A stretch of DNA of 64,000 nucleotides from the IMG/VR virus record IMGVR_UViG_3300032293_001730, positions 29,894 to 93,893 of that record; one strand, written 5' to 3'. The DNA comes from a virus. Numbering within the stretch: position 1 is the first letter of the stretch; each line of letters begins with the position of its first letter. The notes beneath the pieces are model-generated. The model was not told where the DNA came from and did no database searches. It saw nothing but the letters and a program-made list of their open reading frames with translations. Position numbers and translations under genes: made by a program. This document shows positions 13,044-29,450 of this stretch, piece by piece.

Positions 13044-13249
13044 AACTTATTTCGGAAGCCGTTGGCACCATCGCGTTCATCGCGACCTTGTATCTCATCT
13101 TGGGATTCATCGTGATGACGGCGTGGAACTGGTCGATGCCGCCGCTTTTTTCGTTGCCTCGTGCGACGTGGCTCAACGGAGTGGGCCTCGCACTTTTGGC
13201 GGCGTCTTTTCGTCCGGCGAATCGCCCTATTGCAAAGCCGCAGCAATAG
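13040..13249 (+). CDS. Small two-TM membrane protein
   Basis: Hydrophobic ORF coupled to the upstream gene. Confidence 0.55.
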   Translation: MKLISEAVGTIAFIATLYLILGFIVMTAWNWSMPPLFSLPRATWLNGVGLALLAASFRPANRPIAKPQQ

Positions 13250-13258
13250 GTGTATGAT
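13230..13258 (+). promoter_or_regulatory. Sigma70-type promoter (divergent relative of the array promoter)
   Basis: TTGCAA-17 bp-TATGAT, overlapped by the inverted repeat CCTATTGC..GCAATAGG. Confidence 0.65.
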
Positions 13259-13284
13259 TGGGCTCCCCTTCAGGAGAAGCCCAC

Positions 13285-13653
13285 ATGCCCACCAAGATTC
13301 TGACCAAAGCTGACGAGATCGCGACCATCCGCGAGTTCGTCGTCAGCCTGCCCGAAGTGTCCTATCTGCGGTCGGCCCTGGAGCCGTTCGCAGAGGAGTT
13401 CGCGAGGGACATCTACTCGGACCTCGTGCCCCAGGTGCGTGACTCCTGGAACGCCAGGATCGAGGCCGATCGTGAGACGAAGGTCGCACGCGAAGAGCTT
13501 CGTGCTGTCCAGGCGGAGATCAAGAAGGCCCGCCAGGAGGCGGCCATCGAGGCGGCCCGCATCATCCGGCTCCGTGATGCTTTCCAGAGCATCAGGACGT
13601 CGGCCGGTGCTGGCGAACGTGCGATCAACGAGATTGTCGAGTCACTCAAGTAA
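13285..13653 (+). CDS. Hypothetical coiled-coil protein
   Basis: RBS CAGGAG; MPTKILTK... Confidence 0.65.
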   Translation: MPTKILTKADEIATIREFVVSLPEVSYLRSALEPFAEEFARDIYSDLVPQVRDSWNARIEADRETKVAREELRAVQAEIKKARQEAAIEAARIIRLRDAFQSIRTSAGAGERAINEIVESLK

Positions 13654-13671
13654 AGTCTGGAGACGATAACC

Positions 13672-14070
13672 ATGATCGAACTCAAGGAACCGTTTTTCAT
13701 CTCGTCGAGGCTTCTGCCTGCCGTGAAGGTCGGTGGAACGACGGTGAGCATCGAGTACGCCGGCACCCGGCTGCCGGACGGTCGCGTTCCATATCGGTAC
13801 TTCCTCGACTTCCCCGACGGGACGGAGCACGTCGGAGAGGACCTGAAGTCGGGAGCGTTCGGAGGGACGCTGCGGCAGGGAATGGAGTCCCTGCTTGCGT
13901 TCCTCGAAGCATGCGGAGAGTCGAGAAATCCACGCTACGGAGACCACGGCGAGAACGCGGACCTGTTCCCCGAGTTGATCGGAGACTGGGCGTATCAAAA
14001 CAGCGACGAGATCACGAGCGTCAGGCTCTGGATCGAGGAGACGGATGGGTGCTGCATTGAAACTCGTTAG
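13672..14070 (+). CDS. Hypothetical protein
   Basis: ORF follows AAGTCTGGAGAC (box B variant). Confidence 0.65.
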   Translation: MIELKEPFFISSRLLPAVKVGGTTVSIEYAGTRLPDGRVPYRYFLDFPDGTEHVGEDLKSGAFGGTLRQGMESLLAFLEACGESRNPRYGDHGENADLFPELIGDWAYQNSDEITSVRLWIEETDGCCIETR

Positions 14071-14423
14071 GGTCGCTTCAGGTTGGTACGAGACGCGGTG
14101 TGGGCGGTACTCCGTCCTCGTCGCGAACGGAGCCTGGAAGGCCGTCGAGAACGGAACACTTGCAAGCGAAGCCTTTCGCACGAAGCGAGAGGCGGTCGAA
14201 TCAATTGCACGGAGGCTGACGGAGGAACGGACAACAGCGTAGGAGGGAAGGCATGGTCACAGCCTTATTAGGTTAACGCTCCGCCGTGAGCGTCAGCGGC
14301 TTGTCAACACGGCCGCATCGGTCGCCCAGTCGGAAGGTGGCGAGTAACGTCCGACATAGTCCTTTGCATCTCCTGGCGGGGCCGGCACTGTGCCCAAGCG
14401 GTGCCGGCCCCGTTTTGCTTCGC

Positions 14424-14452
14424 TTGCCAATGCTGCGGGGTCGGTGTATACT
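14424..14452 (+). promoter_or_regulatory. Array promoter, type B (left palindrome arm degenerate)
   Basis: TTGCCA ATGCTGCGGGGTCGGTG TATACT. Confidence 0.75.
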
Positions 14453-14474
14453 TGAGCGACCACTGGAGGAAGCG

Positions 14475-15011
14475 ATGAAGACCACCATCCTGACACACGA
14501 CGCACTCGGCAACCCGATTCACACTTTCACCGTCACCTTCACCGAGGTATGCGGCGAGGGGCGGTCATGGTCCTGCCGCATTCGAGAAACGGATCGCACG
14601 ATCGTCGGGCAGTGGGCCCGTGCCGTGAACTGTCTCGCCAAAGACCCTTCGATCGGGCGGGTACGGTGCGACAGGCTTGGGCCAAGGATTTTTTGGCAAC
14701 CAGAAGAAGGGCCGAGGCTTGGGGCTCTGGGCACGATCGTCGTCCACCTTGATTCCGGAGAAACGGTCAAGATCAAAGCCGTGGCGACGTACAGCCGGCC
14801 GGCAATCTCCTGGAAGTACGAATACCTGCTCGATTCGGCGGGTCGCGTCCCGCATGTCGGGGCAAAGAAGTGGATCGGCCGAGTAGACGGAGAAGTCCGG
14901 TTCATCGTTCAGAAGGACGGCGGCACCTGGAAATCGTCCACTGCGGACTGGGTGGACCGCTCGAAGACGAAGGAAGAAGCGTTCTCGAAGTGCGAGGAGA
15001 AGCTGAAGTGA
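14475..15011 (+). CDS. Hypothetical protein
   Basis: RBS GGAGG just after the promoter. Confidence 0.6.
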   Translation: MKTTILTHDALGNPIHTFTVTFTEVCGEGRSWSCRIRETDRTIVGQWARAVNCLAKDPSIGRVRCDRLGPRIFWQPEEGPRLGALGTIVVHLDSGETVKIKAVATYSRPAISWKYEYLLDSAGRVPHVGAKKWIGRVDGEVRFIVQKDGGTWKSSTADWVDRSKTKEEAFSKCEEKLK

Positions 15012-15448
15012 AGTACATCTACCACGACGGCGGCCGCGAGGCTGCCGGATACTCGGGCAAGGCCTCGGACTGCGTGTGCCGGTCCATCGCCATCGCGTCG
15101 GGCATCGACTACCAGGAAATCTACGATCGTCTCGCGGACGGCAACGCCACGCAGCGTGGGGCGTCTCGTGGCCGCACGGCACGCAACGGCATCATCACGC
15201 AACGCCAGTGGTTCAAGGACTACATGGCGTGGCTCGGGTTCGAGTGGACGCCCACGATGAAGGTCGGCCGGGGCTGCACGGTCCACCTCCGGTCCGAGGA
15301 GCTTCCCCTCGGTCGACTCGTGGTGGCGGTGAGCAAGCACTACACGGCGGTGATCGACGGCACGATCTACGACACGCATGACTGCTCCCGTGGTGGGACG
15401 CGGTGTGTGTACGGGTACTGGACCTGGAAGGGAGAGGCTCATGTCTAA
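15008..15448 (+). CDS. Conserved-looking phage protein (DGGR..AG...DCV.RSIAIA...H)
   Basis: GTG overlaps the upstream stop; Cys...His pair could be a peptidase-like dyad (inference). Confidence 0.6.
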   Translation: MKYIYHDGGREAAGYSGKASDCVCRSIAIASGIDYQEIYDRLADGNATQRGASRGRTARNGIITQRQWFKDYMAWLGFEWTPTMKVGRGCTVHLRSEELPLGRLVVAVSKHYTAVIDGTIYDTHDCSRGGTRCVYGYWTWKGEAHV

Positions 15449-15875
15449 AGCTGACTACGAAATCGTTCTCGCGTTTCGCGACATCGTGTTCATCGTCGAC
15501 CTCGACCGAGGCGGGCGGAGCGTCACGAACGACGCCGAGGCTGTCTGGGCTGAGGTCCAGTCGCAGCGTCCAGGCGTTCGACTCGTCTACCGCGACTCTA
15601 TGGGGCGGTGGGACGAGATCATCGGCGGCTCGGAGTTCAAGCCATACCACGGCGACCGTCCGGCGATCGAGGTCTGCGAGTGCTGCGAGCGAGTGTTCAG
15701 GAAGTGGGACCGCTGCACGAACGGCCGGTGCCCGAGGTGCCACGACAGGCATTGCACGAGCGGCGGCGAGACGTGCCCAGGTCACGGCCGGCGTTGGCCT
15801 GAGGGCGTCGTCGGGGACGTCGAGCACGAGAGGAAGATCGAGGGTCTCAGGAAGAAATATGGGGTGACGGCATGA
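15441..15875 (+). CDS. Hypothetical protein with Cys-rich C-terminus
   Basis: SVTNDAE.V, YRDSMGRWD, CECC..C..C..C. Confidence 0.6.
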   Translation: MSKADYEIVLAFRDIVFIVDLDRGGRSVTNDAEAVWAEVQSQRPGVRLVYRDSMGRWDEIIGGSEFKPYHGDRPAIEVCECCERVFRKWDRCTNGRCPRCHDRHCTSGGETCPGHGRRWPEGVVGDVEHERKIEGLRKKYGVTA

Positions 15876-16291
15876 TCTACGCGAAGCACAAACGATTCGT
15901 TCTCTACGGCGGCTATCTCGGGAACAGCAAGCTCACGTTCCGATTCGATCCTCACGACGACAATTCCAGCGTCGAGAAGAAGATCGGGCAACGGTGGGTG
16001 CCTGTGTTCCCTCGCAAGTATCGCTTCTGCGAGGACCTCGCCGATGAGGCTCGCATTTGCGAGGCGAGGGCAAGGCGAATTCCGGAGGACCTGTTCCGGT
16101 GTGAGTGGCGGATGATCAGCGATCGGCTCGACGCTCCAGTCAAGGGCTCCGGCGCCGTCCACTACAAGCCGACGAGGTGTGGGTATTTCTGCGGAACTGA
16201 CAAGCACGTCACCTCCAACGAGCGGACGACGGACGTCCGCAAGGTGACGTGCGATGGCTGCAAGAAAGCTATACGGGAGGCTGTGAGATGA
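15872..16291 (+). CDS. Hypothetical protein
   Basis: Coupled ORF; C-terminal VTCDGC. Confidence 0.55.
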   Translation: MIYAKHKRFVLYGGYLGNSKLTFRFDPHDDNSSVEKKIGQRWVPVFPRKYRFCEDLADEARICEARARRIPEDLFRCEWRMISDRLDAPVKGSGAVHYKPTRCGYFCGTDKHVTSNERTTDVRKVTCDGCKKAIREAVR

Positions 16292-16566
16292 AAAAGATCG
16301 CCTGGATCACCTGGGGCCTGCCCCAACCGCAAAAGGTCGAGGTGGTCGGTCCTCTGAGGCCCGGCAACACGATCGTGAAGTTCAAGGGCGTGTCGCCGTC
16401 CGTACCGGACGAACACATCCACGAGACGGAAGCGGCCGCGTGGTCGAGACTCATCAGAGACGCAGAGAGAAACTTGGATCACGCAGTCGCGAGGCTGGAG
16501 TGGCTCCGCCAGGAGCGAGAAAACTGTTTGACCAATACACCGACAGCGGAGACAATGAACCCATGA
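16288..16566 (+). CDS. Hypothetical protein
   Basis: RBS GGAGG; coupled ORF. Confidence 0.55.
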   Translation: MKKIAWITWGLPQPQKVEVVGPLRPGNTIVKFKGVSPSVPDEHIHETEAAAWSRLIRDAERNLDHAVARLEWLRQERENCLTNTPTAETMNP

Positions 16567-16835
16567 TGAAGAAACCCAAATACGTTCTGGAGCCGAGCAG
16601 CGAGCGTCGCGTCGCGGCCCGCGAGGCCGCCCGTATCCTCGACTGTTCGATGGGGCACTTGCGAGCACTGGCCCGCAAAGAGGTCCTCAAGTCCTGGAAG
16701 ATCGGCCCGAGCACGGTGCTGTACAGCCTCGACGAGATCGTGGCCTACGGCACTGAAAAGGCCAAGGGCCGGAAGGCCGGCAAGGTTCGCGGCGCTCGGC
16801 CCCAGGGATTCTCGCCAGACCTATCCGGCGAATAA
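16563..16835 (+). CDS. Excisionase/MerR-like HTH protein
   Basis: AAREAARILDCSMGHLRALARKEVLKSWKIG. Confidence 0.75.
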   Translation: MMKKPKYVLEPSSERRVAAREAARILDCSMGHLRALARKEVLKSWKIGPSTVLYSLDEIVAYGTEKAKGRKAGKVRGARPQGFSPDLSGE

Positions 16836-16868
16836 AACTCCCGTCTTTCTCGGCCATTTGCGGCCCAC

Positions 16869-16897
16869 TTGCAATGCACCGAGACCGGTGGTATGAT
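16869..16897 (+). promoter_or_regulatory. Array promoter/operator, type A
   Basis: TTGCAA TG CACCG AGAC CGGTG G TATGAT. Confidence 0.85.
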
Positions 16898-16922
16898 GCT
16901 GGGGTCACGAGGAGACATCGAC

Positions 16923-17138
16923 ATGAAAACGGTTCGTCCAATCTCGTTCTTCCCGCCGTCGTCCGGCAAGGGCAAGTGGCACGCGGCCGCTGCGTGCAGC
17001 ACCCTCTCGGCGTGCGGCTCGGGGGCGACGGTCAACTCGCTCGGGTTTCAGCGGATTCAGGTCGAGGGCGGAGTCGATGCGAAGTGGGTTCATCCGATTT
17101 GTTGCCGTCGGTGTCTCAAGCAAGCCTGCGGGGAGTAA
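16923..17138 (+). CDS. Small Cys-rich hypothetical protein
   Basis: RBS GAGGAGA; WH..C..CG..CCRRC. Confidence 0.6.
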   Translation: MKTVRPISFFPPSSGKGKWHAAAACSTLSACGSGATVNSLGFQRIQVEGGVDAKWVHPICCRRCLKQACGE

Positions 17139-17142
17139 CACG

Positions 17143-17661
17143 ATGCCCTACAAATTCCTTCGAGTCACGAGCAACGACGGCCGGTGCGAGAAGTGCGGCA
17201 CGGCCTGCCCGAAGCGTCGGGTCGAGGTGCTGCCCGTCGACGCCGATGGCAACGCCTGCGGAGAGGTGCAACTCTGGGGCGTGAACTGCGCCGCCTTCGC
17301 CCGCTACGGCAGCAAGTCGCAGCGGCACCAGCAGGCCGTCGTCAACGAGGCCGTTACCGCCGAGGCTGGTCGCGCCTACTGGGAGAAGGCCCGCCTGGGG
17401 CGTGTCGCCGTCGCCGGTCAATCCTACGACTTCGGCGGGCCGGCGACTGTCGTAGTCTGCGGCAGCGGCGAGAACTCCTGCCCAGAGGGGCTTGCCAACC
17501 GCCTGTACCACCGCACCGGCCGAAACCTGATCGGCAGCTACTTCGCTCGCGGCCCCCAGGGCGAGGTTGTGCGTGTCGACGGCAGCGACGCGGCCGACGT
17601 GCAGTTCTTCGCGGATCGTGGGTATGTTCAGTGCTCGAACCCCGTGGAGGCTGCGACATGA
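17143..17661 (+). CDS. Hypothetical Zn-ribbon protein
   Basis: CEKCG...WGVNCA. Confidence 0.6.
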   Translation: MPYKFLRVTSNDGRCEKCGTACPKRRVEVLPVDADGNACGEVQLWGVNCAAFARYGSKSQRHQQAVVNEAVTAEAGRAYWEKARLGRVAVAGQSYDFGGPATVVVCGSGENSCPEGLANRLYHRTGRNLIGSYFARGPQGEVVRVDGSDAADVQFFADRGYVQCSNPVEAAT

Positions 17662-17879
17662 ACAAGCCCCAAAGGCTGTACGAGGTCACCACACCGGCTG
17701 GCAAAGTGCTGCCGCTCCGGCGAGGCCTCCAGTTCCGCCACAAGCGAATCATCGACGCCCAGTGCGTCGTCACCCGGGTGTGTCGCGGCATGGTGTACTA
17801 CAAGGTCCTCCCCAATAGCTCCAGCGACTGCTTCCCCGTCGACCAGTTCGACCGATGGGCCGAAATCCCCGTGGAATAG
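17658..17879 (+). CDS. Hypothetical protein
   Basis: Coupled ORF ending GTGGAATAG just before the next promoter. Confidence 0.55.
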   Translation: MNKPQRLYEVTTPAGKVLPLRRGLQFRHKRIIDAQCVVTRVCRGMVYYKVLPNSSSDCFPVDQFDRWAEIPVE

Positions 17880-17885
17880 CCCCCC

Positions 17886-17914
17886 TTGCAATGCACCGAC
17901 GTCGGTGCTATACT
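17886..17914 (+). promoter_or_regulatory. Array promoter/operator, type A
   Basis: TTGCAA TG CACCG ACGT CGGTG C TATACT (perfect 16-bp palindrome). Confidence 0.9.
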
Positions 17915-17937
17915 TGGGGCACCCCAGGAGAAATACC

Positions 17938-18873
17938 ATGACCGACCTCAGCATCCTCTCGCCCTCCGAAGTCGACACGATCTACCTGAAGCGGCTTGCC
18001 TCCTACGACCGTGCTGCGAACGCCCTCGGCTATGCGACCGACCGCGTCCTCCGCGAGTCGGGCGATCAAGTCGGCGTCCAGACCGGCCGCCGCGCATGGT
18101 CCTGGCACATCGTCCGCAAGGGCACGACCCTGCCGAGCTACCCGGTCTACGCCGACGTCCAGCCGCACCTCCTGACGGTCCAAGAGTGCGTCGACGGCCG
18201 TCTGGCGTCGGCTGAAAGCCTGGACGCCCTGGCCCAGGCCACGACCGTCTGCCGCGAGGCCCAGTCGGCCTGCCGCGAGGTCGAGGTCGAGTACGCTCGC
18301 CGACCCTGGAGTCGCTACTGGCTCGTCACGTCGAGCGACGGGCACATCCACCGCTCGTGCCATTGCTCGACGTGCAATAAGGGCCTCCGCCGCACGGGGT
18401 TCGCTCTGACGCCGTTCCTGAGCGGCAAGTCTGACGCCGATGCCGTTGCCGACCTGGGCCCGGCGCTGTGCAGCGTCTGCTTCCCGGACGCCCCGGTCGA
18501 GTCGAGGGAGCAGTCCCGCATCCCGGCCCGGCTCGCCCTGGCCCTCGCCGAGGAGGGCGTCGAGGCCTTCCAGAAGGCTCGCCAGGAGGCATCGGCCAAG
18601 CGGGCCGCTCGGTGCCCCGGCTCGGGCCAGCAAGGCATCCTGGACGGCCACCGGGCCTTCCACAAGTGCCCGGTCTGCGGCGAGTCTCAGCGGGCCACCG
18701 CAGGCGGCAAGTTTCGGCCCCACAAGCCGGCCCAGTTCTACATCGAGAACAACGACTACAAGGCCTGGAACGGCTCTGCCTGGGGCCCCCGCACGAAGGC
18801 CGCGATCTACGGGTCTTTCGACGAGGCCGAGGCGGTGGCGGCTCAGGTCAACGGCAAAGCGAGGAGGAAGTGA
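17938..18873 (+). CDS. Hypothetical Cys/His-rich phage protein
   Basis: GHIHRSCHCSTC, LCSVCFPDAPV, CPGSG..CPVCG; RBS CAGGAG. Confidence 0.7.
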   Translation: MTDLSILSPSEVDTIYLKRLASYDRAANALGYATDRVLRESGDQVGVQTGRRAWSWHIVRKGTTLPSYPVYADVQPHLLTVQECVDGRLASAESLDALAQATTVCREAQSACREVEVEYARRPWSRYWLVTSSDGHIHRSCHCSTCNKGLRRTGFALTPFLSGKSDADAVADLGPALCSVCFPDAPVESREQSRIPARLALALAEEGVEAFQKARQEASAKRAARCPGSGQQGILDGHRAFHKCPVCGESQRATAGGKFRPHKPAQFYIENNDYKAWNGSAWGPRTKAAIYGSFDEAEAVAAQVNGKARRK

Positions 18874-19118
18874 TGGAACTCGAAGAACCGCTCGATCCGA
18901 AGGAAGCCGCAGCCGCCATCCGGGGCATCGTGACGAACTGGAGGGCCTGCACTCAGGCCGCCGGGCTCGCCAAGAAGGCCGGGAGGGGCCGGGACGCCGT
19001 CGAGCCCCTGGCTGCCTCCCTGGCCGCGATCATCGAGGCTGCGGCGTGGCTGTCCCAGGGCGACGGCGAGGACCGGCTCGCCCTGGCCCGGGCGGTGGCC
19101 GAGGGGCTTGTGTCATAG
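18873..19118 (+). CDS. Hypothetical protein; stop supplied by box A
   Basis: Ends CTTGTGTCATAG (LVS*). Confidence 0.6.
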   Translation: MELEEPLDPKEAAAAIRGIVTNWRACTQAAGLAKKAGRGRDAVEPLAASLAAIIEAAAWLSQGDGEDRLALARAVAEGLVS

Positions 19119-19134
19119 GCCGAAAACGACCCCC

Positions 19135-19163
19135 TTGCAATGCACCGAGGCCGGTGCTATACT
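19135..19163 (+). promoter_or_regulatory. Array promoter/operator, type A
   Basis: TTGCAA TG CACCG AGGC CGGTG C TATACT. Confidence 0.9.
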
Positions 19164-19205
19164 TGAGGCAGACGGGACGAGAAACCACTAACCAGGAGAC
19201 GACCA

Positions 19206-19923: not shown

Positions 19924-19952
19924 TTGCAATGCACCGAGGCCGGTGCTATACT
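19924..19952 (+). promoter_or_regulatory. Array promoter/operator, type A (identical to the 19135 copy)
   Basis: TTGCAA TG CACCG AGGC CGGTG C TATACT. Confidence 0.9.
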
Positions 19953-20871: not shown

Positions 20872-20907
20872 ATTGTCCGGATACACCAACCCCCAGGAGA
20901 CTTGCCC

Positions 20908-21393
20908 GTGAACGCCTCCCCAGTCACCACGTTCGCCAAGCTGGCCGAGTCCGCCGGCTGGCGGTTCGAGACAGCCTGGACCGACCGTGAGCCCAACCCT
21001 GAGGCCCTGGAGATCGCCGGCGCCCGCTACGCCACGCTCGTGTCTGCCGACGGGCTCGTGAAGGTGGGGCTCGTCGGCACGCGGCTCTACTACCACGGCG
21101 GGCGGGTCTGGTGGGGCGACCCCTGCTTCGACATCGAGCCCGACCGCGTCACGGTCGCCGGGATCGTCGTCGACCCGGGCCACCGTCGCCAGAGGCTCGG
21201 GACGGCGGCCGTGCGGTCGCTCGTGGACGTGGCCGACCAGGGCGGCTTCCGGCTGCTCCTGGAGGCCCAGCCGATCGGAACGGGCATCAGCCGGCGGAAG
21301 CTGGTGCAGTGGTACAAGGGCCTGGGGTTCGAGCCCGCCTACCCCGGTGAGGGCGAGACGATCTTGTGTCATAGGCCGAAAGCGGCCTGTTGA
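20908..21393 (+). CDS. GNAT-family acetyltransferase
   Basis: [14 protein letters not shown] (motif A); LVQWYKGLGF (motif B). Confidence 0.8.
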   Translation: MNASPVTTFAKLAESAGWRFETAWTDREPNPEALEIAGARYATLVSADGLVKVGLVGTRLYYHGGRVWWGDPCFDIEPDRVTVAGIVVDPGHRRQRLGTAAVRSLVDVADQGGFRLLLEAQPIGTGISRRKLVQWYKGLGFEPAYPGEGETILCHRPKAAC

Positions 21394-21418
21394 CAATGCA
21401 CCGACCCCGGTGTATACT
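21390..21418 (+). promoter_or_regulatory. Array promoter/operator, type B
   Basis: TTGACA ATG CACCG ACCC CGGTG TATACT. Confidence 0.9.
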
Positions 21419-21886: not shown

Positions 21887-21932
21887 TTGTCCGGATACGC
21901 AGAACCATCACCCTCAACCAGGAGACTTACCA

Positions 21933-22474: not shown

Positions 22475-22503
22475 TTGACAATGCACCGACTGCGGTGTAT
22501 ACT
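22475..22503 (+). promoter_or_regulatory. Array promoter/operator, type B
   Basis: TTGACA ATG CACCG ACTG CGGTG TATACT. Confidence 0.9.
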
Positions 22504-22736: not shown

Positions 22737-22942
22737 CCACCGCAGCCATCAAGCGAGCCCTGGTAGCCATGACGAGCGGCGAGTGCCGCTGGATCGGCCG
22801 CGAGGACGTCCACGTCTACTGCCGCAGCCCGCTCAACCACGGGAGGACCTACCGCGTCGTCACGGCCGACCGGGACTACGAGGGGCAGCCGTGGATCGAG
22901 GCGGAGGCCGCCCTGGCCGTGATCAAGCAGCTTGTGTCATAG
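22733..22942 (+). CDS. Small hypothetical protein; stop supplied by box A
   Basis: Ends CTTGTGTCATAG (LVS*). Confidence 0.55.
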   Translation: MTTAAIKRALVAMTSGECRWIGREDVHVYCRSPLNHGRTYRVVTADRDYEGQPWIEAEAALAVIKQLVS

Positions 22943-22945: not shown

Positions 22946-22974
22946 TTGCATAGCACCGACGTCGGTGCTATACT
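22946..22974 (+). promoter_or_regulatory. Array promoter/operator, type A
   Basis: TTGCAT AG CACCG ACGT CGGTG C TATACT. Confidence 0.88.
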
Positions 22975-23016
22975 GGGACAGTCGAGAACGAAACACCACT
23001 AACCAGGAGACGAGCC

Positions 23017-23355
23017 GTGAAAGACCCCCTCAAGAACATCATCAAGTCCGCCGGCTTCGAGGACGTGACCTGCGACGTCCCTGTGTCCTGCTACTCCCTG
23101 CCCCTGACGTTCCGGGCATTCCACGCCCTGCACGCCCTGGACCACGGGCTCATCGGCACGCCCGACTACCTGGGCATCGCCTACTTCTGGGCGCACGACT
23201 ACAAGTTCTATCTCCGCGAGGCGACGCAAAAGCAGCGGAAGATCGTCCACGATCTGTTCCTCAAGGCGGGGCTCGCCCTCGACGGGGTCAGTCCAGAGCA
23301 CGCCGCGATCGTCGAGAAGCACCTCGGCAAGCGGCTCAAGAAGGTCTACGGCTGA
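23017..23355 (+). CDS. Hypothetical protein
   Basis: AACCAGGAGA leader. Confidence 0.65.
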   Translation: MKDPLKNIIKSAGFEDVTCDVPVSCYSLPLTFRAFHALHALDHGLIGTPDYLGIAYFWAHDYKFYLREATQKQRKIVHDLFLKAGLALDGVSPEHAAIVEKHLGKRLKKVYG

Positions 23356-23385
23356 TACCATCCACCCCTAACCAGGAGACCACCC

Positions 23386-23652
23386 GTGAACAACAAGCTG
23401 CTACAAGACGAGCTTCGCACCTGCATCCGCCTTCTCCGCTGCTACGCGCGAGCCGAGCGAGATCGCGGAGACGCCCATCAGGCTGCCGGCATCGGCAGGC
23501 ATATCGACCGGATATGCGCCGTGTCGCTTCACGCCGGGGGGGTGAAGGAGATCGAGCCGGGCGTGTTCTCGACTGGTGGGCTCTTTGCCCGCCGCTACCT
23601 CGACCTGACGGACGGCACGAAGCAGCACTTGCGGGAACTGCTCGCGTCATAG
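23386..23652 (+). CDS. Hypothetical protein; stop supplied by a box A variant
   Basis: AACCAGGAGA leader; ends GCGTCATAG GCC. Confidence 0.6.
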   Translation: MNNKLLQDELRTCIRLLRCYARAERDRGDAHQAAGIGRHIDRICAVSLHAGGVKEIEPGVFSTGGLFARRYLDLTDGTKQHLRELLAS

Positions 23653-23705
23653 GCCGCGCCCGAAAACGTCAAGCGATCCACCACCACCAACCAGGAGACT
23701 TGCCC

Positions 23706-24029
23706 ATGAACACCCAAAAGACCATCACATTCGGCAAACGGCACAGCGTCGCGGTGACGTTCTACAAGGGATCGGACGGCCTCTGGCACGCCCACGGTGG
23801 GCTCCTGGTCGTCCCAAGAAAGAGCCTCAAGGCAGCCCGCGCGGCGGTCGCCAGTCGCCTCCAGAGCCTCAGCCGCCTCGGCCCGGGCTCGAAGGTGAAG
23901 CTCTGGGGCTCGACCTGGAGGGTCGTCGAGTGGCAGCCCGAGAACGGCAAGGGCGGGGCCTACTGGCTCCGGAACTCTAAGGGCGAGGACGCCGTGGCCG
24001 GGCCCGACGAAGTGGAGCGTGTGTCATAG
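23706..24029 (+). CDS. Hypothetical protein; stop supplied by box A
   Basis: AACCAGGAGA leader; ends GTGTCATAG (RVS*). Confidence 0.6.
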   Translation: MNTQKTITFGKRHSVAVTFYKGSDGLWHAHGGLLVVPRKSLKAARAAVASRLQSLSRLGPGSKVKLWGSTWRVVEWQPENGKGGAYWLRNSKGEDAVAGPDEVERVS

Positions 24030-24032
24030 GCC

Positions 24033-24061
24033 TTGCCAATGCACCGATCCCGGTGTATACT
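24033..24061 (+). promoter_or_regulatory. Array promoter/operator, type B
   Basis: TTGCCA ATG CACCG ATCC CGGTG TATACT. Confidence 0.88.
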
Positions 24062-24104
24062 GCACCCAGACGACGACGAAACACAACTAACCAGGAGACA
24101 TCGA

Positions 24105-24419
24105 ATGATCATCTACAGCGTCGACAAGCCGGGCACCCCGAAGGTTTCCAAGGGAGACCTGGAGTACACGAGTCAAAAGCACGTCGCGTTCCAGGGCCTC
24201 TGCCGCGTCGAGGCGGCCGCCGACGAGTTCTTCGGCGGCAGTCGCTCGAAGCCCTACGTCGGCCGCGTCCTGGAAAGCCCCACCTGGGGGAAGCTCCTGG
24301 CCGAGGCCAGGAAGGTCCAGCGGGCCACCCGGGACGAGCACCACGTCTTCCTGGAGGGCGCCCGCGTCCGGTACGTCGACGGCGGCGTCCAGGTGATCGA
24401 GCTTTTCTTTGGTTCCTGA
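24105..24419 (+). CDS. Hypothetical protein
   Basis: AACCAGGAGA leader; PTWGKL..EA...DEHHVFLEG. Confidence 0.65.
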   Translation: MIIYSVDKPGTPKVSKGDLEYTSQKHVAFQGLCRVEAAADEFFGGSRSKPYVGRVLESPTWGKLLAEARKVQRATRDEHHVFLEGARVRYVDGGVQVIELFFGS

Positions 24420-24423
24420 GGCC

Positions 24424-24452
24424 TTGCAATGCACCGGCATCGGTGCTATACT
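24424..24452 (+). promoter_or_regulatory. Array promoter/operator, type A
   Basis: TTGCAA TG CACCG GCAT CGGTG C TATACT. Confidence 0.9.
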
Positions 24453-24494
24453 TGGGACACGACGAACGAAACACCATTCACGAGGAGACGACCA

Positions 24495-25112
24495 GTGAGC
24501 ACCACCAACTACATCCCGAAGCCCGAGTCCGTCGAGCTTCACCTCGGCAGCGACCCCCATTTCACGAAGAAGTACGGCAAGGCCGTCAAGGCCCTGGGCG
24601 GACGGTACAGTGAATGCCGTGGCGACGCCCACCGTCGGTTCGTCACGCTGCCCTGGAACGATGAAGGCCGGTCGCTGGCAAACAAGCTGGTCGCCGAGTT
24701 CGGCACCGGCAGCCTCCTGTGCGGCAAGACGACGCTGATCGTGCGGGGCAGTGAGACGTTCCGGGGGAAGCACGTTCACGCCTGGGTTGTCGTCCACAAG
24801 GTCGCTCGCGGCTCCGTCGACCCGTGCGGGGTGCTGCTCGGCCTGTACGAGGCCGCTTTCCTCCTGGCCTTCCCTGAGGCCGCGTTCCCCGAGCCGCCCG
24901 TCGTCAAGGCCCCGAAGCCGCTCGCCGCCGACCTGTACCTCAACACGCCGGTGAAGTTCCACGCCGTCCTCGAAGCCCTGCAACAGTACATCGACAACGG
25001 CAACGACGCAGACCACCTCGCCGACGACGAGGAACTTCAGGCCAAGCTGGAGGCCGCAGAGGCTTTCCGCGACCAGCTTGACGGAGTCCTGGCGTCCCTC
25101 GCCAATGCCTGA
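24495..25112 (+). CDS. Hypothetical protein
   Basis: GAGGAGA leader; ends TGA TTGTCCGGATAC. Confidence 0.65.
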   Translation: MSTTNYIPKPESVELHLGSDPHFTKKYGKAVKALGGRYSECRGDAHRRFVTLPWNDEGRSLANKLVAEFGTGSLLCGKTTLIVRGSETFRGKHVHAWVVVHKVARGSVDPCGVLLGLYEAAFLLAFPEAAFPEPPVVKAPKPLAADLYLNTPVKFHAVLEALQQYIDNGNDADHLADDEELQAKLEAAEAFRDQLDGVLASLANA

Positions 25113-25158
25113 TTGTCCGGATACGCTTACCCCCCACCACCCAGCCGGGAGACGAACC

Positions 25159-25434
25159 GTGAGAGAGAACATCCTCAAGCTCACCGACAAGGAAATCGAG
25201 TTCATCAAGAACAGCCTCCGCCGCTCCTCGCAGCGAGGCGAAGACGAGGAGCGTGTCGCCGAGCAGGCCGGCAACGCCGAAGCTGCGGCCTTCTATCGCC
25301 AACTGGCTAAAGACGCGACGAGCCTGCTTCTCGTCATCGAGGTGCAGGTCGCCAAGCCTGACGAAGACAGCGACGAGTGCCCGGAGTGCGGCGAGGACTA
25401 CGGATACTGCCAGTGCGAAGACGAGGAGAACTGA
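25159..25434 (+). CDS. Hypothetical protein with C-terminal Zn-knuckle
   Basis: CPECGEDYGYCQC. Confidence 0.6.
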   Translation: MRENILKLTDKEIEFIKNSLRRSSQRGEDEERVAEQAGNAEAAAFYRQLAKDATSLLLVIEVQVAKPDEDSDECPECGEDYGYCQCEDEEN

Positions 25435-25534
25435 CCTTCCACCTAACCCAGCAAGCCCGCGACATCCTGAAGTACGCCCAGGCATCCACCCACGTCCAGA
25501 GACAATCGAAACTCGAAGCGAAGGAGGCGGTTAA

Positions 25535-25867
25535 GTGAACAAGCTCAAATTCGTTAAGCCGCTCAAGAGCGACCAAAGACACTACGTCCACGGCGAGAGA
25601 ATCGAGCGGTGGGGCTGGTATCGAGACAGCGAGTACCGTCAGGTCTTCGCGTATGTCATCACAGAAAGCTGCAAGGCCTATCGCTGGCCGGGCGGCAAAC
25701 TGGTGGCAGAGCATCGCGAGAAGCCGATGGCCGTGGATCACTACGCATACTCTCGGCAAGCGAGGTGGCCGACGGCCCCGTGGCTCCAGCGTTCGTACAC
25801 GAAACTTGCGTCGCTGTGCCGCAAGGATTTTGAGACTCGATCGAAAACCCAGGAGACCGTCCAGTGA
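25535..25867 (+). CDS. Hypothetical protein
   Basis: RBS AAGGAGG. Confidence 0.55.
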   Translation: MNKLKFVKPLKSDQRHYVHGERIERWGWYRDSEYRQVFAYVITESCKAYRWPGGKLVAEHREKPMAVDHYAYSRQARWPTAPWLQRSYTKLASLCRKDFETRSKTQETVQ

Positions 25868-26091
25868 GCATCCCCCTGAACCTCACCGCAAGCCAGCAGT
25901 CGCTCCTCGCGGAGCTTTGCTGCGTCATCGCGGACCTCGCCCGCACCAACGACGACTGGACGGCCGTGCCGCCCGTCGAGGCTGTGCGGACCTGCAACAA
26001 GCTGCTCGAAGTCGTCGAGACGTTCGACGCGAGCAGCCAGACCTTCGGCGTCCTCTACGACAAACTCCACCGCACGGGAGCCAATGCATGA
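25864..26091 (+). CDS. Hypothetical protein
   Basis: CCAGGAGA leader; coupled. Confidence 0.5.
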   Translation: MSIPLNLTASQQSLLAELCCVIADLARTNDDWTAVPPVEAVRTCNKLLEVVETFDASSQTFGVLYDKLHRTGANA

Positions 26092-26339
26092 CCACCTACA
26101 CCACCACCCGCTCCCGTTTCTCAGACCCCAGTCAGATCACGCCCGGCAGCATCGTGAGACTCGGCGGGGGGCTGTGCAAAGTGATCACGCCTCGCATCCT
26201 GGAGTGCTGCCACACGGGGCGATGGTTCGTCGACGCGCGAGCGTTTCGAGGAGGCGAGCACGCCGAGCCGGTGAGGGTCGAGTACGTCGGCTCTCAGTCA
26301 GACCCGGCCGTCAAGGCCATGATCGAGGAGAGCAAGTGA
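26088..26339 (+). CDS. Hypothetical protein
   Basis: Coupled ORF. Confidence 0.5.
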   Translation: MTTYTTTRSRFSDPSQITPGSIVRLGGGLCKVITPRILECCHTGRWFVDARAFRGGEHAEPVRVEYVGSQSDPAVKAMIEESK

Positions 26340-26509
26340 GCCGAATCATTCTCACCGCCGAAGCAGCGAAGATTCTCGGAGTCTCGACGTCGACCGTCCG
26401 CAGACTCGCGAAGAGAGGCGACATCAAGTCTTGGAGACTTGGAGTCGGGTCCTATGGGTTCAAACTCGAAGACGTCCTGGCACGCAAGGAGAAGACATGC
26501 AAAGACTGA
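26336..26509 (+). CDS. Excisionase/MerR-like HTH protein
   Basis: ILTAEAAKILGVSTSTVRRLAKRGDIKSWRLG. Confidence 0.8.
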   Translation: MSRIILTAEAAKILGVSTSTVRRLAKRGDIKSWRLGVGSYGFKLEDVLARKEKTCKD

Positions 26510-26619
26510 TCAACGCCCTCGTGCTCGTGCGGCTCGGGCAGGAACTCGGCGCCGACACGCCCCTCGCCCGAGCCATCGCCCAACTCGTCGAAGAGGCCCT
26601 AAAACTGGGCGTGTCATAG
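26497..26619 (+). CDS. Small peptide; stop supplied by box A
   Basis: RBS AAGGAG; LVLVRLGQELG; ends GGCGTGTCATAG (GVS*). Confidence 0.55.
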   Translation: MQRLINALVLVRLGQELGADTPLARAIAQLVEEALKLGVS

Positions 26620-26624
26620 CCCCC

Positions 26625-26652
26625 TTGCAATTCACCGACGTCGGTGTATAAT
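26625..26652 (+). promoter_or_regulatory. Array promoter/operator, A/B hybrid (16-bp spacer)
   Basis: TTGCAA TT CACCG ACGT CGGTG TATAAT. Confidence 0.85.
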
Positions 26653-26693
26653 GGGGGAGTAGAGCAACGATACCACCAACCAGGAGCAAACCC

Positions 26694-27074
26694 ATGTCCG
26701 CTTTCGTGTGCAGCAAAAACCATATCGCAGCCGTCGCCGCTTTCGGCTCGTCGAAGCACGCGTTCCTCGGTGGCGGCTACGCCAGCTTCGACAGCATCTA
26801 CAAGACGCTTGCCGATGCCAACGTCCGCAGCGTGTGCCACCGCTACGGCGAGTCCGCCGATGAGTACGACAGCCTCCTGCCCCCGCCCGACAGCCGCCGG
26901 GCGCCGAAGTGCTCCGCCATCGAGATCGTCAAGTTGTGCGACTGCCTCGACTACCAGTCCAGCGAGACCGACGACTGGCGTGAGTCGGAAGCCTGCAAGC
27001 TGCTCGGCCGCATTCGCAACGCGGCGATCAACGCACTGCCCGGCTACGACGAGGCAAAGTGGGCTATCGGCTGA
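26694..27074 (+). CDS. Conserved-looking phage hypothetical protein
   Basis: MSAFVCS..HI, NVRSV.HRY, CLDYQSSE..DW; ends TGA TTGTCTGGACAC. Confidence 0.7.
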   Translation: MSAFVCSKNHIAAVAAFGSSKHAFLGGGYASFDSIYKTLADANVRSVCHRYGESADEYDSLLPPPDSRRAPKCSAIEIVKLCDCLDYQSSETDDWRESEACKLLGRIRNAAINALPGYDEAKWAIG

Positions 27075-27119
27075 TTGTCTGGACACACACACCACCCTCA
27101 ACCATCAGGAGACCTACCC

Positions 27120-27509
27120 GTGAAGTTCACAGCCCAATTCGACAAGTACGTCTGCCCAGGCGACACGATCCGCCGCAACGTGACCGACACCGTGTCGCTC
27201 GTGGCCCGGCTGGAGTTCGACCAGGACACACGCCCTGAGGACTCCGACTGCTACGACGAGAAGGACATCGCCCGCTGGAAGGCGGACGAGTGGTTCTACG
27301 GCGGCGTGGTGCTCTCGATCGAGGTCAACGGCGAGAAGGTCCGCGATCACGTCGCCAGCCTCTGGGGCATCGACTGCAACTTCGGCCAGGACAATAGCTA
27401 CCTCGCCGAGGTCGCCAACGACCTGCTCGCAGAGTCGAAGGACGAGATTCGAGACTTCCTGGAGACGCTCGCGGCTCAGGCCTCGAACGCCGCCGTGCTC
27501 GTGGCTTGA
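27120..27509 (+). CDS. Hypothetical protein
   Basis: W...EWFYGGV...SLWGID; CAGGAGA leader. Confidence 0.65.
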   Translation: MKFTAQFDKYVCPGDTIRRNVTDTVSLVARLEFDQDTRPEDSDCYDEKDIARWKADEWFYGGVVLSIEVNGEKVRDHVASLWGIDCNFGQDNSYLAEVANDLLAESKDEIRDFLETLAAQASNAAVLVA

Positions 27510-27565
27510 CGACAAAGTACGGATTCGATTACCCTCCCCCACCCCCGACGAAAGGAACCCAGCCG

Positions 27566-27883
27566 ATGGCCCACGAAACACTTGAATTCGCCGAGTTCGC
27601 CCGCCGCTACTGCGAGCGACACGTCAACACGCCCGATGGGCTCGCAGAGATATTCCAGCAACAGGTCGAGCTTTTCCAGCCCGACGGCTGGCTGCTCCTG
27701 GAATGCCAGGACTTCTCGTCGAGCCGCCTCGGGCACTACGTCATCCTGCCCTACGGCGGACAGGCGACGCTCAAGACGATCCCAGACCGGCCGGTGAGCC
27801 CCCGGGGACTCGCGAGCGACATGAGCGTCGTCGTCGCGGTACTGCCGGCGGACAAGCTGCCTTCGCAAGGAGGTGACAAGTGA
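27566..27883 (+). CDS. Hypothetical protein
   Basis: RBS AAGGA. Confidence 0.55.
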   Translation: MAHETLEFAEFARRYCERHVNTPDGLAEIFQQQVELFQPDGWLLLECQDFSSSRLGHYVILPYGGQATLKTIPDRPVSPRGLASDMSVVVAVLPADKLPSQGGDK

Positions 27884-28227
27884 ACGCAATCAGAATCATT
27901 CACCCGCGATGGGAGGACGGCGCCCTCGTGTTCGACGACCCGGCCGTGGGGCTCGTTCGCGAGCCCTTCGTCGCGGGGGCTGACGTGGCGATCGGGCTCC
28001 TGGCGAAGAAAGTCAAAGGATGCAGCCGCGAGTTCTCGCTGCTCTTCTCCGACTCGCCGTTCCCGGGGCATCAGGCGTCGATGAAGTGGCAGAGCGAGGA
28101 GTACGGCGGCAACTGGTATTACTGCAAGCAACTTGGCATGAGCGGCTGGCTGTGTCCGGCGTTGCTCAAGTATTTCGATTCCGCACCGAAGAATCTGTAC
28201 CTCCAGGTCAAGCGAAAGGAGTCTTGA
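27880..28227 (+). CDS. DUF6717-like protein
   Basis: VFDD...GLVREPFVAGAD, FS..PFPG, GGNWY, GWLCPALLKYF. Confidence 0.7.
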   Translation: MNAIRIIHPRWEDGALVFDDPAVGLVREPFVAGADVAIGLLAKKVKGCSREFSLLFSDSPFPGHQASMKWQSEEYGGNWYYCKQLGMSGWLCPALLKYFDSAPKNLYLQVKRKES

Positions 28228-28562
28228 TGATCACGATCGAGAGACATGATGAGTATCGAGTCTCGGAGCGTGTGGTGCTTCGCCCAGGCGACGTGTTCCG
28301 CGCGACCGATGGCCCGTACTGGCGGTCAGGCAAGGACGAGATCAGCTTGAAAGCCCCAGGCCCGTATCGCTTCGTGTCGTTTGCGAAGCGAGGCGCCGTC
28401 GGCTGGATCGAAGCGTTCGACAAGTTTGGCAACTTCACGGTGCTTCACATCGAGGGCCGTCGCAAGAAGATCGACACCGCGATCGTGGCTCGTCCGTACC
28501 GTGTCATCGGAAAAAAGCGGCCTCAATTGCAACGGCTTGACAATAGGAAGAAGGGTCGCTAG
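28227..28562 (+). CDS. Hypothetical protein
   Basis: RBS AAGGAG; coupled. Confidence 0.55.
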   Translation: MITIERHDEYRVSERVVLRPGDVFRATDGPYWRSGKDEISLKAPGPYRFVSFAKRGAVGWIEAFDKFGNFTVLHIEGRRKKIDTAIVARPYRVIGKKRPQLQRLDNRKKGR

Positions 28563-28565
28563 AAT
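28537..28565 (+). promoter_or_regulatory. Sigma70-type promoter without the palindrome
   Basis: TTGACA-17 bp-TAGAAT, preceded by the box-A-like GTGTCATCGG at 28501. Confidence 0.7.
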
Positions 28566-28620
28566 CTTTGGCAGTCAGTCAATAGTCCGGAAACGATAAC
28601 CCATCAGGAGAAAGAAACCC

Positions 28621-29370
28621 ATGAGCGAAAACAACAGCAAGCTGTGCCTGCACGCCGGAGCGGAACTCGTCGACCGTGAGGCGGTCGACGCGGTGCTCAC
28701 GCCGCAGGCGACTGAGACCTGGACGCCGGTGGCCCACGGGCTCCTGGTCGACAGCGTCGAGAACTCCCTCGCCGGGAGCGGGCTCGCCGTCGTCGATCGG
28801 GCGTTCGCCCTCACCAAGGGCGGCGACCGACTGTTCGGGCTTCTCACGCTCGGCGGCGAGGATGGTGGTGGAGACTACGCGTTCACGATCGGCATCCGGA
28901 ACAGCCACGACAAGAAGTTCCCCGTCGGGCTGGCGGCCGGTAGCCGTGTTTTCGTCTGCGACAACCTCGCGTTTTCGAGCGAGGTGGTCATCAAGTCGAA
29001 GCACACGCGTTTCATCCACGATCGTCTGCCGCGTCTCGTGGCCGACGGCGTGGCGGGGCTCGTGCAGCACCGACATGTCCAGGCCCGTCGGATCGAGTGC
29101 TACAAGGAGTTGGAGGTCCGCAGTCAGGCTCACCTGCATGACGTGGTGCTCAAGGCTTACCGCGCCCAGGCGATCCCGGCTCAGGCCATCGCCAAGGTGA
29201 TCGAGGAGTTCGAGGCCCCCCGCCATCCGGAGTTCAACGACTGGACTGGCTGGAGCCTTTTCAACGCGTTCACCGAGACCCTGAAGGGGTTCGGCGAATT
29301 GCAGCGGCGGACGCAACGCCTGCATGGCGTGTTCGACGCGGAGGTCGGCCCGAAGCTCCTGGCGGTGTAG
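28621..29370 (+). CDS. DUF932/DUF945-family protein
   Basis: GIRNSHDK, RVFVCDNLAFS, KHT, WSLFNAFTE. Confidence 0.85.
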   Translation: MSENNSKLCLHAGAELVDREAVDAVLTPQATETWTPVAHGLLVDSVENSLAGSGLAVVDRAFALTKGGDRLFGLLTLGGEDGGGDYAFTIGIRNSHDKKFPVGLAAGSRVFVCDNLAFSSEVVIKSKHTRFIHDRLPRLVADGVAGLVQHRHVQARRIECYKELEVRSQAHLHDVVLKAYRAQAIPAQAIAKVIEEFEAPRHPEFNDWTGWSLFNAFTETLKGFGELQRRTQRLHGVFDAEVGPKLLAV

Positions 29371-29450
29371 TCTCAATGTCTGGATACGAGGCGGGGCGAA
29401 TCGTCGCCCCGCCTCGGCCAGAATTCCTCAAATCACGAAGGGACACGACA

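Follow-up and report, generated by a model that had tools for sequence, protein, structure and literature searches.

The IMG/VR virus record IMGVR_UViG_3300032293_001730 is a 93.9-kb genome rated 96% complete, and its bases 29894-93893 make up the 64,000-nucleotide stretch analyzed here, which is called the window and to which all positions refer unless another record is named. The window contains an array of small genes in which some 38 to 40 open reading frames (ORFs), lying between 13285 and 29370, are separated by three recurring elements: a sigma70-like promoter with an inverted repeat (the P unit), a 9-mer ending in TAG (box A), and a motif with a 10-nt core (box B). An earlier note, made from the letters of the sequence, had described these elements as a repeated grammar through which early genes are gained, lost, and shuffled; here we compare the array with those of related phages. 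Nearly every gene lies on the plus strand, and the GC content of the genome is 61%. The terminase, portal, prohead protease, and HK97-type capsid genes are encoded in the record before the window starts. Genes for nucleotide metabolism and methylases occupy 7-13 kb of the window, and a replication and recombination module follows 3' of the array (SNF2 helicase, DUF3799 PDDEXK exonuclease, OB-fold protein, Prim-Pol, and UvrD helicase).

The array genes are nearly all unrelated to one another, as had been noted, with the exception of one paralogous pair (16563-16835 and 26336-26509), and there are a few more of them than the 35 or so first counted. Among about 30 array proteins tested against protein families, the only matches were to GNAT and DUF6717, together with a weak match to HTH_17 and a sub-threshold match to DUF932, which gives no footing to the proposal that the array holds host-takeover or anti-defence genes. 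The phage has no near cultured relative; the closest cultured capsids are those of Firmicute phages, at only 27-29% identity. The sole clue to the host is the capsid gene, which is 98% identical to a 1.3-kb contig of a Microbacteriaceae metagenome-assembled genome. A megablast search of the array against 50,697 phage records gave zero matches, and no Rfam family was found in the window. The promoter pattern was used to scan viral contigs for relatives, and this yielded four other records, G1 to G4, the present genome being G0. Identity to the window is about 95% for G3, about 70-80% for G1 (a genome of 96 kb), and about 70-75% for G4; G2 is 100% identical to G1 across 20 kb.

Elements of the linkers

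A consensus scan of positions 12500-31500 identified 13 sigma70-like promoters, all on the plus strand, where shuffled sequences gave 1.6 ± 1.1 (Table 1); those of the array are confined to 13.2-28.6 kb. The spacer of 11 of the 13 carries an inverted repeat, CACCG-N4-CGGTG, which is perfect in 10 and degenerate in one (14424). These 11 co-oriented copies, at 14.4-26.7 kb, combine near-consensus sigma70-type hexamers with a 17-nt spacer. The remaining two, which the earlier note had listed as looser versions of the unit (13230 and 28537), are indeed sigma70-like promoters but lack the inverted repeat. When the whole genome was searched for the repeat together with its flanks, nine forward matches were found, all at 16.8-26.7 kb of the window, with none in reverse and none in a control. 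The repeat occurs in two registers: a -35 hexamer TTGCAA goes with 6-bp arms and TTGACA with 5-bp arms shifted by 1 base, the length of the spacer being unchanged. Downstream of the -10 hexamer are a CA-rich leader and an extended Shine-Dalgarno (SD) sequence (ACCAGGAGAC), 5-7 nt ahead of the start codon. The P units would be early promoters for the host's sigma70-type holoenzyme.

The arms of the repeat are constant in about 40 promoter copies, even across genomes that are only 70% identical; its 4-nt center is free, and there are zero compensatory changes. Because the arms are invariant, the loop is free, and paired positions never change together, sequence-specific recognition of the arms is indicated. 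The half-site centers are spaced 10 bp apart, and we infer that the repeat is an operator for a dimeric repressor, which would switch all P promoters jointly. The only hint of a binder is a candidate, the small protein encoded at 16563-16835 (plus strand), which is conserved in the relatives and has a weak HTH_17 match below the Pfam cut-off. PDB sequence searches with a 90-aa HTH_17-like protein and a 149-aa helix-turn-helix (HTH)-like protein returned nothing usable.

A comparable repeat is known from T4-type myoviruses, whose mobile regulatory cassettes are called promoter-early stem-loops (PeSL; Arbiol et al. 2010, PMC2839356; Comeau et al. 2014, PMC4122927), in which the stem-loop lies mostly between the -35 and -10 hexamers and terminates transcription (PMC2839356). 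Instead of an operator, the spacer repeat might likewise be a hairpin, formed in RNA or DNA, by which read-through from the cassette upstream is attenuated, and its ability to fold as a 6-9-bp hairpin, as well as the empty search for a repressor, is consistent with such a role. No T-run follows the hairpin, however, and terminator-like sites in the array number 12 against 13.1 expected, which is not above chance; invariant arms around a free loop, with no compensatory pair change, argue against attenuation as well. We regard it as doubtful that attenuation replaces the operator role, although the two are compatible with each other.

Promoters of similar design were seen in two other places. 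An unrelated low-GC provirus, IMGVR_UViG_3300038738_000029 (L237:1780-3100, GC 27%), has three near-identical promoters of the form TTGACA-tt-CACCG-N4-CGGTG-a-TATAAT, with the repeat at the equal spacer position and with no protein homology to this phage; the likeness could reflect convergent design or have arisen by chance from the search pattern. Apart from this provirus, the wider viral scan for the pattern added chance single matches only. A metagenome scan with the 14-base repeat pattern gave at least 120 single matches, and among the matches listed none had the full promoter context, so we regard them as chance. A distant relative (L273:2376-4890; OB-fold protein 36% identical, no box B) has a three-copy promoter family of its own, in which a different near-palindrome overlaps the spacer and the -10 hexamer, and the architecture recurs there with another operator-like sequence.

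Box A (GTGTCATAG) is present in five copies, all on the plus strand, where 0.23 are expected, and lies 3-25 nt ahead of the -35 hexamer. Across four genomes we counted 18 exact copies on the plus strand and 0 on the minus strand, nearly always directly 5' of a P unit. The TAG is in most copies the in-frame stop of the upstream gene, with GTG-TCA encoding the last two residues; the three parts that the earlier note had called noncoding do recur, but this one is for the most part the end of a gene. In the more distant relative L263, box A is entirely intergenic and stands 5' of a different promoter that has no repeat, and one gene is flanked by two 88-nt units of box A plus promoter that are 99% identical. 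Since box A occurs there with a promoter lacking the repeat, it is older than the repeat, and it probably has a function of its own. The variant at 23644 has the look of a P unit from which the core promoter has been lost.

The box B core is found in 15 copies in the window, all on the plus strand, where 0.65 are expected. In the array it forms part of a second linker of about 55 nt, the B-type linker, which consists of a TGA stop, box B, a CA-rich leader, an SD sequence, and a start codon. At least nine unrelated gene families end in the tail supplied by box A (VS or AS before the stop), and one family has this A-type tail in G1 and a B-type tail in G3, which indicates that crossovers fall inside the linkers and rewrite the C terminus. 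All four units that the earlier note had singled out as clear were recovered, and the intergenic gaps at 13.2-29.4 kb follow the same grammar. The elements keep their order and orientation along the array, and the arrangement is real and statistically solid.

Table 1. Linker elements, recombination genes, and differences between G0 and G3 (positions in the window)
Feature	Position	Strand	Details
Terminator-like hairpin and T-run	14377..14420	+	Just 5' of first array promoter; left array edge; read directly
Sigma70-like promoter without repeat (loose copy)	13230..13258	+	Consensus scan
P unit, degenerate left arm	14424..14452	+	G0/G3 breakpoint directly after -10 hexamer
P unit, perfect repeat	16869..16897	+	Extra [2 genes + P] in G3 here
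P unit	17886..17914	+	Repeat and consensus scan
P unit	19135..19163	+	33-nt exact repeat in common with P19924; extra [P + gene] in G3
P unit	19924..19952	+	[P + 19990-20871] cassette missing in G3
P unit, register 2 (TTGACA, repeat shifted 1 nt)	21390..21418	+	Replacement breakpoint at SD
P unit, register 2	22475..22503	+	Left end of P-to-P indel
P unit	22946..22974	+	Right end of P-to-P indel begun at 22475
P unit, register 2	24033..24061	+	Repeat and consensus scan
P unit	24424..24452	+	Replacement begins at start codon under its control
P unit, 16-nt spacer, TATAAT	26625..26652	+	Replacement breakpoint directly after -10 hexamer
Sigma70-like promoter without repeat	28537..28565	+	Followed by box B variant; consensus scan
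Sigma70-like promoter (TTGACA-N16-TACCAT)	37911..37944	+	Box B in spacer and -10 region; conserved across lineage
Box A	19110..19118	+	TAG is stop of 18873-19118
Box A	21366..21374	+	Out of frame for GNAT ORF, which continues to TGA within -35 hexamer
Box A	22934..22942	+	Stop of 22733-22942
Box A variant	23644..23652	+	Leader and SD follow (23653-23705), no promoter between
Box A	24021..24029	+	Stop of 23706-24029
Box A	26611..26619	+	Stop of 26497-26619
Box B variant	13653..13664	+	Its GGAGAC doubles as SD of 13672-14070
Box B, B-type linker	20873..20884	+	Stop, box B, CA-rich leader, SD, start
Box B, B-type linker	21887..21898	+	Right breakpoint of gene replacement
Box B, B-type linker	25113..25124	+	Core match
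Box B, B-type linker	27075..27086	+	Core match
Box B variant	27515..27526	+	Right breakpoint of replacement
Box B	28583..28594	+	5' of DUF932-like gene
Box B	29376..29387	+	13-bp GC-rich hairpin directly after
Box B	30111..30122	+	5' of SNF2 helicase gene, outside array
Box B	33197..33208	+	Intrinsic terminator directly after; 5' of Prim-Pol gene
PDDEXK (DUF3799) exonuclease	31500..32339	+	Family match
OB-fold ssDNA-binding-like protein	32425..33192	+	Adjoins exonuclease; AlphaFold2 model, pLDDT 86.5
Event 1	Leader and first gene after P14424		Replaced; left break directly after -10 hexamer, right at next start codon
Event 2	At P16869		Extra [2 genes + P] in G3, between two P copies
Event 3	Gene 16923-17138		Missing in G3; joint ATG to ATG
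Event 4	3' end of 17938-18873 and gene 18873-19118		Replaced; right break at start of P19135
Event 5	At 19135		Extra [P + 230-aa gene] in G3, between two P copies
Event 6	[P19924 + 19990-20871]		Missing in G3; joint in 6-7-nt microhomology, three codons before each stop
Event 7	Gene 21461-21886		Replaced by two genes; left break after SD, right at TGA and box B
Event 8	[22527-22942 + box A + P]		Missing in G3; G3 promoter chimeric (upstream flank of P22475, leader of P22946)
Event 9	Gene 23386-23652		Missing; joint in repeat of SD-leader and start codon
Event 10	Genes 24495-25434		Replaced; begins just past start codon behind P24424
Event 11	Genes 25535-26091		Replaced; both joints at gene starts
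Event 12	Gene 26336-26509		Missing in G3; joints at tight gene boundaries
Event 13	26651-27505		Replaced, from just past P26625 -10 hexamer to box B variant

Gene gain, loss, and replacement between relatives

Beyond the array, colinear blocks of 6.8, 8.3, and 10.1 kb link G0 with G3 at 95-96% identity, and most colinear stretches there fall within 94-96%. Between 14455 and 27506 they differ by 13 indel or replacement events, against three in about 30 kb outside, so that the array is about 10-fold more plastic than its flanks. Alignments of the G0/G3 junctions placed the breakpoints of the 13 events (26 ends): 13 ends fall in the units that run from P to the start codon, three at box B, two in repeats of the SD-leader, seven at other gene boundaries, and one within a gene. 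P-type junctions make up 11 of the 39 in the array, and the binomial test gave p = 0.015 when the ends were counted and p = 0.036 when the count was of events that touch a P unit. Three indels run exactly from one P unit to another (at 16869, 19135, and 22475/22946), with the joints inside shared sequence and no extra bases. The position of the joint in event 6 implies that the upstream protein gains a B-type tail. The check that the earlier note had proposed, whether breakpoints in relatives fall at the boxes, thus came out largely positive, and comparison supports the shuffling itself; it lends nothing to the guesses made about its catalyst and about gene functions.

The more divergent relatives show rearrangements of the same kind. 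Behind gene 19990-20871, box B leads to the GNAT gene here but to a different gene in G1; the cassette consisting of P and the 230-aa gene occupies different array positions in G3 and G1; and family-level maps of four arrays show several genes relocated within the array of G4. Near-identical P units of 81-113 nt flank single genes in the relatives, and three P units of G1 are 92-97% identical over 81-94 nt. In G0 the longest exact match between P units is 33 nt (P19135/P19924).

A second variable locus involves an N6/N4 DNA methylase gene, found here at 11660-12394, 5' of the array. In G1 (78756-79435) and L260 (14999-15692) this gene lies 3' of a ferritin-like gene, at the spot that holds ORF 39367-40620 here and a different 0.9-kb segment in G3.

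Probable recombination between portable linkers

The best explanation of these findings is that, in this uncultured tailed phage of ~94 kb, the stretch at 14.4-27.5 kb is a hyperplastic early region, in which small ORFan genes are joined by two portable kinds of linker. We consider it probable, at roughly 60%, that homologous or microhomology recombination between P repeats shuffles the genes of this region, in the manner of PeSL and in an unrelated lineage. The P-type linker (about 75-100 nt) would comprise box A, a short C-rich or hairpin spacer, the promoter, and the CA-rich leader with its extended SD sequence up to the start codon; the B-type linker would be the second portable junction. 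As direct repeats, such linkers would recombine by the ordinary homologous or microhomology-mediated route, by which genes would be deleted, duplicated, inserted, or swapped, and every product would still have its stop and start codons together with a promoter or leader. The catalyst might be the host machinery with RecA, or the phage exonuclease acting together with the OB-fold protein. Phage recombinases carry out relaxed homologous recombination, for which short or diverged homology is sufficient (De Paepe et al. 2014, PMC3945230), and catalysis of this kind would fit.

Several results weigh against this interpretation. A repeat is lacking at seven of the ends, which are at gene boundaries, and one further end is within a gene; two events have only 3-7 nt of microhomology; and the exact match between pairs of P units in G0 has a median of just 12 nt. 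Across the four arrays, the fraction of broken adjacencies is 0.86 at P junctions, 0.62 at box B, 0.77 at tight junctions, and 0.71 at others, which are similar rates. The promoter repeat is missing from the promoters of more distant relatives, and no repressor for it was identified, the sole HTH match in the array lying under the Pfam cut-off. The assignment of the host to Microbacteriaceae is weak, being drawn from one 1.3-kb contig. Finally, breakpoints at gene boundaries are also expected if selection acts on random illegitimate events.

This last point leads to a different account, in which the motifs are purely regulatory and the mosaicism stems from random illegitimate recombination with selection for joints at gene boundaries, the repeats having no causal part. 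The repeat-free boundaries, the short microhomologies, the short median match, and the similar rates of breakage at all junction types fit this account, which we nevertheless consider unlikely. It does not predict three indels bounded by P on both sides, with the joint within shared sequence, or a chimeric promoter; nor does it predict the excess of ends in P units over the share of P junctions, or the near-identical P units around single genes in relatives. Unrelated genes, moreover, take their last codons and stop from box A and the B-type linkers, for which crossovers inside the linker are needed. Restricting the count to gene pairs of which both members occur in the other genome gives 15 of 27 broken P junctions against 10 of 33 broken tight ones, and only in this comparison does P stand out. 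As the rates of broken adjacency are similar whatever the type of junction, we conclude that the repeats are preferred but not exclusive sites; the shuffling at shared junctions put forward before holds in this weaker form, as a preference seen against G3.

The earlier note had also named a tyrosine recombinase (7845) and an IS110-like protein (39367) as possible catalysts, and an integron-like, site-specific system would have one of them act on box A or box B. The window does contain a gene for a tyrosine recombinase (7845-8720; Phage_integrase, E 2.7e-7), and the junction motifs are short, conserved, and co-oriented. The gene lies, however, 5.5 kb 5' of the array on the other strand, and it adjoins an excisionase-like gene in what is the usual integration module of a phage; ORF 39367-40620, which has a low GC content at third codon positions (GC3), matched no transposase nor any other Pfam family. 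Crossovers are scattered over the promoter, the -10 hexamer, the SD sequence, the start codon, and the last codons, with no fixed position, and box B is both unstructured as a single strand (z +1.4) and genome-wide. Like an integron, the array consists of small, unrelated, co-oriented genes with recurring junction elements; unlike integron cassettes, each cassette here has its own promoter, crossovers are spread over the linker, and no IntI, attI, or attC was found. The junctions look like homologous or microhomology crossovers, nothing points to a site-specific enzyme, and we regard such a system as highly improbable.

The PDDEXK exonuclease is likely part of the general recombination machinery. 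Its neighbor, the OB-fold protein, is a conserved protein of 255 aa with more than 60 homologues on phage contigs of up to 98 kb. The top fold match was the phiC31 recombination directionality factor gp3 (9teh_I, Z 7.5, 151 residues aligned), followed by the OB folds of RPA, BRCA2, and gp32, with middling scores.

Among known systems, PeSL is the closest in architecture. It extends from an upstream stop codon through a sigma70-like promoter, with a stem-loop often between -35 and -10, to a downstream SD sequence and start codon (PMC2839356). The two share a sigma70-like promoter repeated many times in a hyperplastic region (tens of copies in PeSL); an inverted repeat in the spacer, here of 5-6 bp, in 11 copies and able to form a hairpin; a unit of about 100 bp from stop codon to SD sequence and start, here about 75-100 nt from the box A TAG to the start; and a position 5' of ORFans, where the units bound indels and replacements between close relatives. 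In PeSL, mini-circles form by recombination between neighboring units. The present phage belongs to an unrelated lineage, with an HK97-type capsid, portal, and S78 protease and no T4 core, and its units have no sequence similarity to PeSL. Its repeat, having no T-run and an invariant sequence, is more operator-like than terminator-like, and neither the box A stop-codon module nor the B-type linker has a described PeSL counterpart. Given the HK97-type structural genes, the capsid identity of 27-29%, and the GC content of 61%, the array is a PeSL analogue in a different uncultured lineage and not a member. To our knowledge, PeSL-type cassettes are documented only in T4-like myoviruses of Gram-negative hosts. 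The resemblance to PeSL is closer than the earlier note had allowed.

Short conserved boundary ("linker") sequences between modules act as crossover points in lambdoid phages; here the boundary is one regulatory unit repeated a dozen times in tandem order within one region. Cluster O mycobacteriophages have multiple strongly predicted SigA-like promoters and more than 30 copies of a 17-bp dyad repeat; a direct repeat found there on both sides of one gene exists as a single copy in the relatives, a pattern that the authors ascribe to recombination between repeats (PMC4351075). The Cluster O dyad repeats are scattered and lie outside the promoter spacer, and neither a composite linker nor a cassette array is described.

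Box B as a genome-wide element

Box B had been proposed as a part specific to the cassettes, which the wider counts contradict. With the eighth base of the core left free, 25 copies are found on the plus strand of the whole genome and 0 on the minus strand, the structural and replication modules included; a stricter core with W at the eighth base occurs in four relatives in 43 co-oriented copies against one opposed, where controls gave 2-3. Box B is retained at orthologous positions between genomes only 70-85% identical and is present in relatives at 50-57% protein identity that lack the promoter repeat. An alignment of 67 nonredundant sites defines a contiguous, asymmetric motif of about 20 nt (AWWGTMYGGAWACR-N3-ACC), directly followed by a purine and without a conserved partner upstream. 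Intergenic positions, 1-22 nt past a stop codon and 7-64 nt ahead of the next start, account for about half of the sites, and the remainder lie inside ORFs. Judged by this distribution, box B is most likely a regulatory signal separate from the cassettes, with only an incidental role at junctions.

Eight nonredundant sites lie exactly 9 nt past TTGAC(A/T) and so form a full sigma70-like promoter, TTGACW-N16-TACNNT, with box B at the operator position. The reading that we rank first, although tentatively, is that box B is a DNA site for a factor, similar to a stoperator. The stoperators of Cluster A mycobacteriophages (L5 gp71; PMC9283540) are likewise asymmetric, number more than 20 per genome, and are co-oriented with transcription; these sites of about 13 bp lie mostly in short intergenic spaces and some of them in promoters. 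Unlike in Cluster A, the early promoters of the present phage carry another, symmetric site, and some box B sites, roughly ten, lie inside ORFs. No homologue of the monomeric two-domain repressor (HTH plus stoperator domain) was recognized by Pfam, PHROGs, or PDB sequence searches. The 13-mer consensus of Cluster A is unrelated to that of box B.

Somewhat less probable is an RNA-level signal in the intercistronic leader, either a processing site or a binding site for a translational regulator. Box B begins 1-9 nt past stop codons, and with its leader it is single-stranded in RNA folding; its GU-[..GGA.]-AC core resembles the hairpin selected for CsrA by systematic evolution of ligands by exponential enrichment, which we counted in favor of this reading. 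A search for a CsrA gene in the phage found none, however, and in orthologous variants a 2-bp stem is disrupted three or four times, with a single compensatory change and a single wobble pair. At 37911 and the seven other promoter-overlapping sites, box B precedes the predicted transcription start, which makes an RNA role impossible there. Complementarity to the 3' region of 16S rRNA was dropped as unconvincing.

Third in rank, and unlikely, is a second class of promoter of which box B would be the core, read by a phage or host factor. The distance from box B to the next start codon (23-64 nt) equals that of the -10 hexamer of P units, and similar leaders follow; the contiguous ~20-nt motif with its purine directly after would also suit a promoter, as would a box B variant at 9256, between a terminator-like palindrome and the first plus-strand gene. 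Against this, sigma70 region 2 was not detectable in G0 or G1, and an intrinsic terminator directly follows box B at 33197. A search for a T7-type RNA polymerase gave no match, but the control likewise matched in no genome, so the search is uninformative.

Three further observations concern the surroundings of box B. The palindrome near 9256 is perfect, with 14-bp arms and a T-run (9218-9268), and lies where the integrase-side genes and the first plus-strand gene diverge; after it come the box B variant and the SD sequence of an excisionase-like HTH protein. A strong hairpin directly follows box B at two sites, 29376 and 33197, the latter being a canonical terminator. The promoter at 37911 is followed by about 70 nt (37940-38012) that end in a strong hairpin and T-run, with an ORF lacking an SD sequence directly behind; to judge from these features, the segment looks like a small RNA gene or a leader-attenuator.

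On a more speculative level, and with considerable doubt, the two systems might be joined: the box B factor would exert genome-wide, orientation-dependent control of transcription (stoperator-type silencing or a new promoter class, in a lineage unrelated to Cluster A), and cassettes of box A and promoter would be mobile, excising as circles and reinserting at other copies, to give a self-organizing expression platform for new genes.

Other features of the window lie apart from the linkers. The first 7 kb, seemingly noncoding, is in fact one giant low-GC3 ORF (165-6764, 2199 aa, with unusually low GC3), which, like the giant ORF L026:5635-12315 (2226 aa), has no Pfam match; a PDB sequence search with the latter, a head protein, returned nothing usable. 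Between the Prim-Pol and UvrD helicase genes is an origin-like, AT-rich gap of 174 nt (34879-35052) with short direct repeats (AGTTCAAA-type). Relatives sought through DUF932 belong to other phage groups and lack the motifs of this array. Low-GC phages bearing DUF932 (L161-L168, L164-L165) have intergenic repeats of their own, a TCTCTAATTCT-type repeat and an 18-mer around GTTGATATTCAACG, in 4-7 copies per locus.

The presence of a PeSL analogue in an unrelated, high-GC, uncultured phage of ~94 kb suggests a general, convergent way to trial new genes, in which linkers carrying a stop codon, a promoter, and a start codon let most crossovers stay viable. The array goes beyond PeSL in three respects: its invariant operator-like repeat could switch a dozen promoters together, its shared stop-codon box rewrites the C terminus of any gene landing upstream, and box B, conserved more deeply than the promoters, may mark a stoperator-like layer of control outside the mycobacteriophages. 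The P unit is, in addition, a compact candidate promoter-operator part for high-GC hosts.

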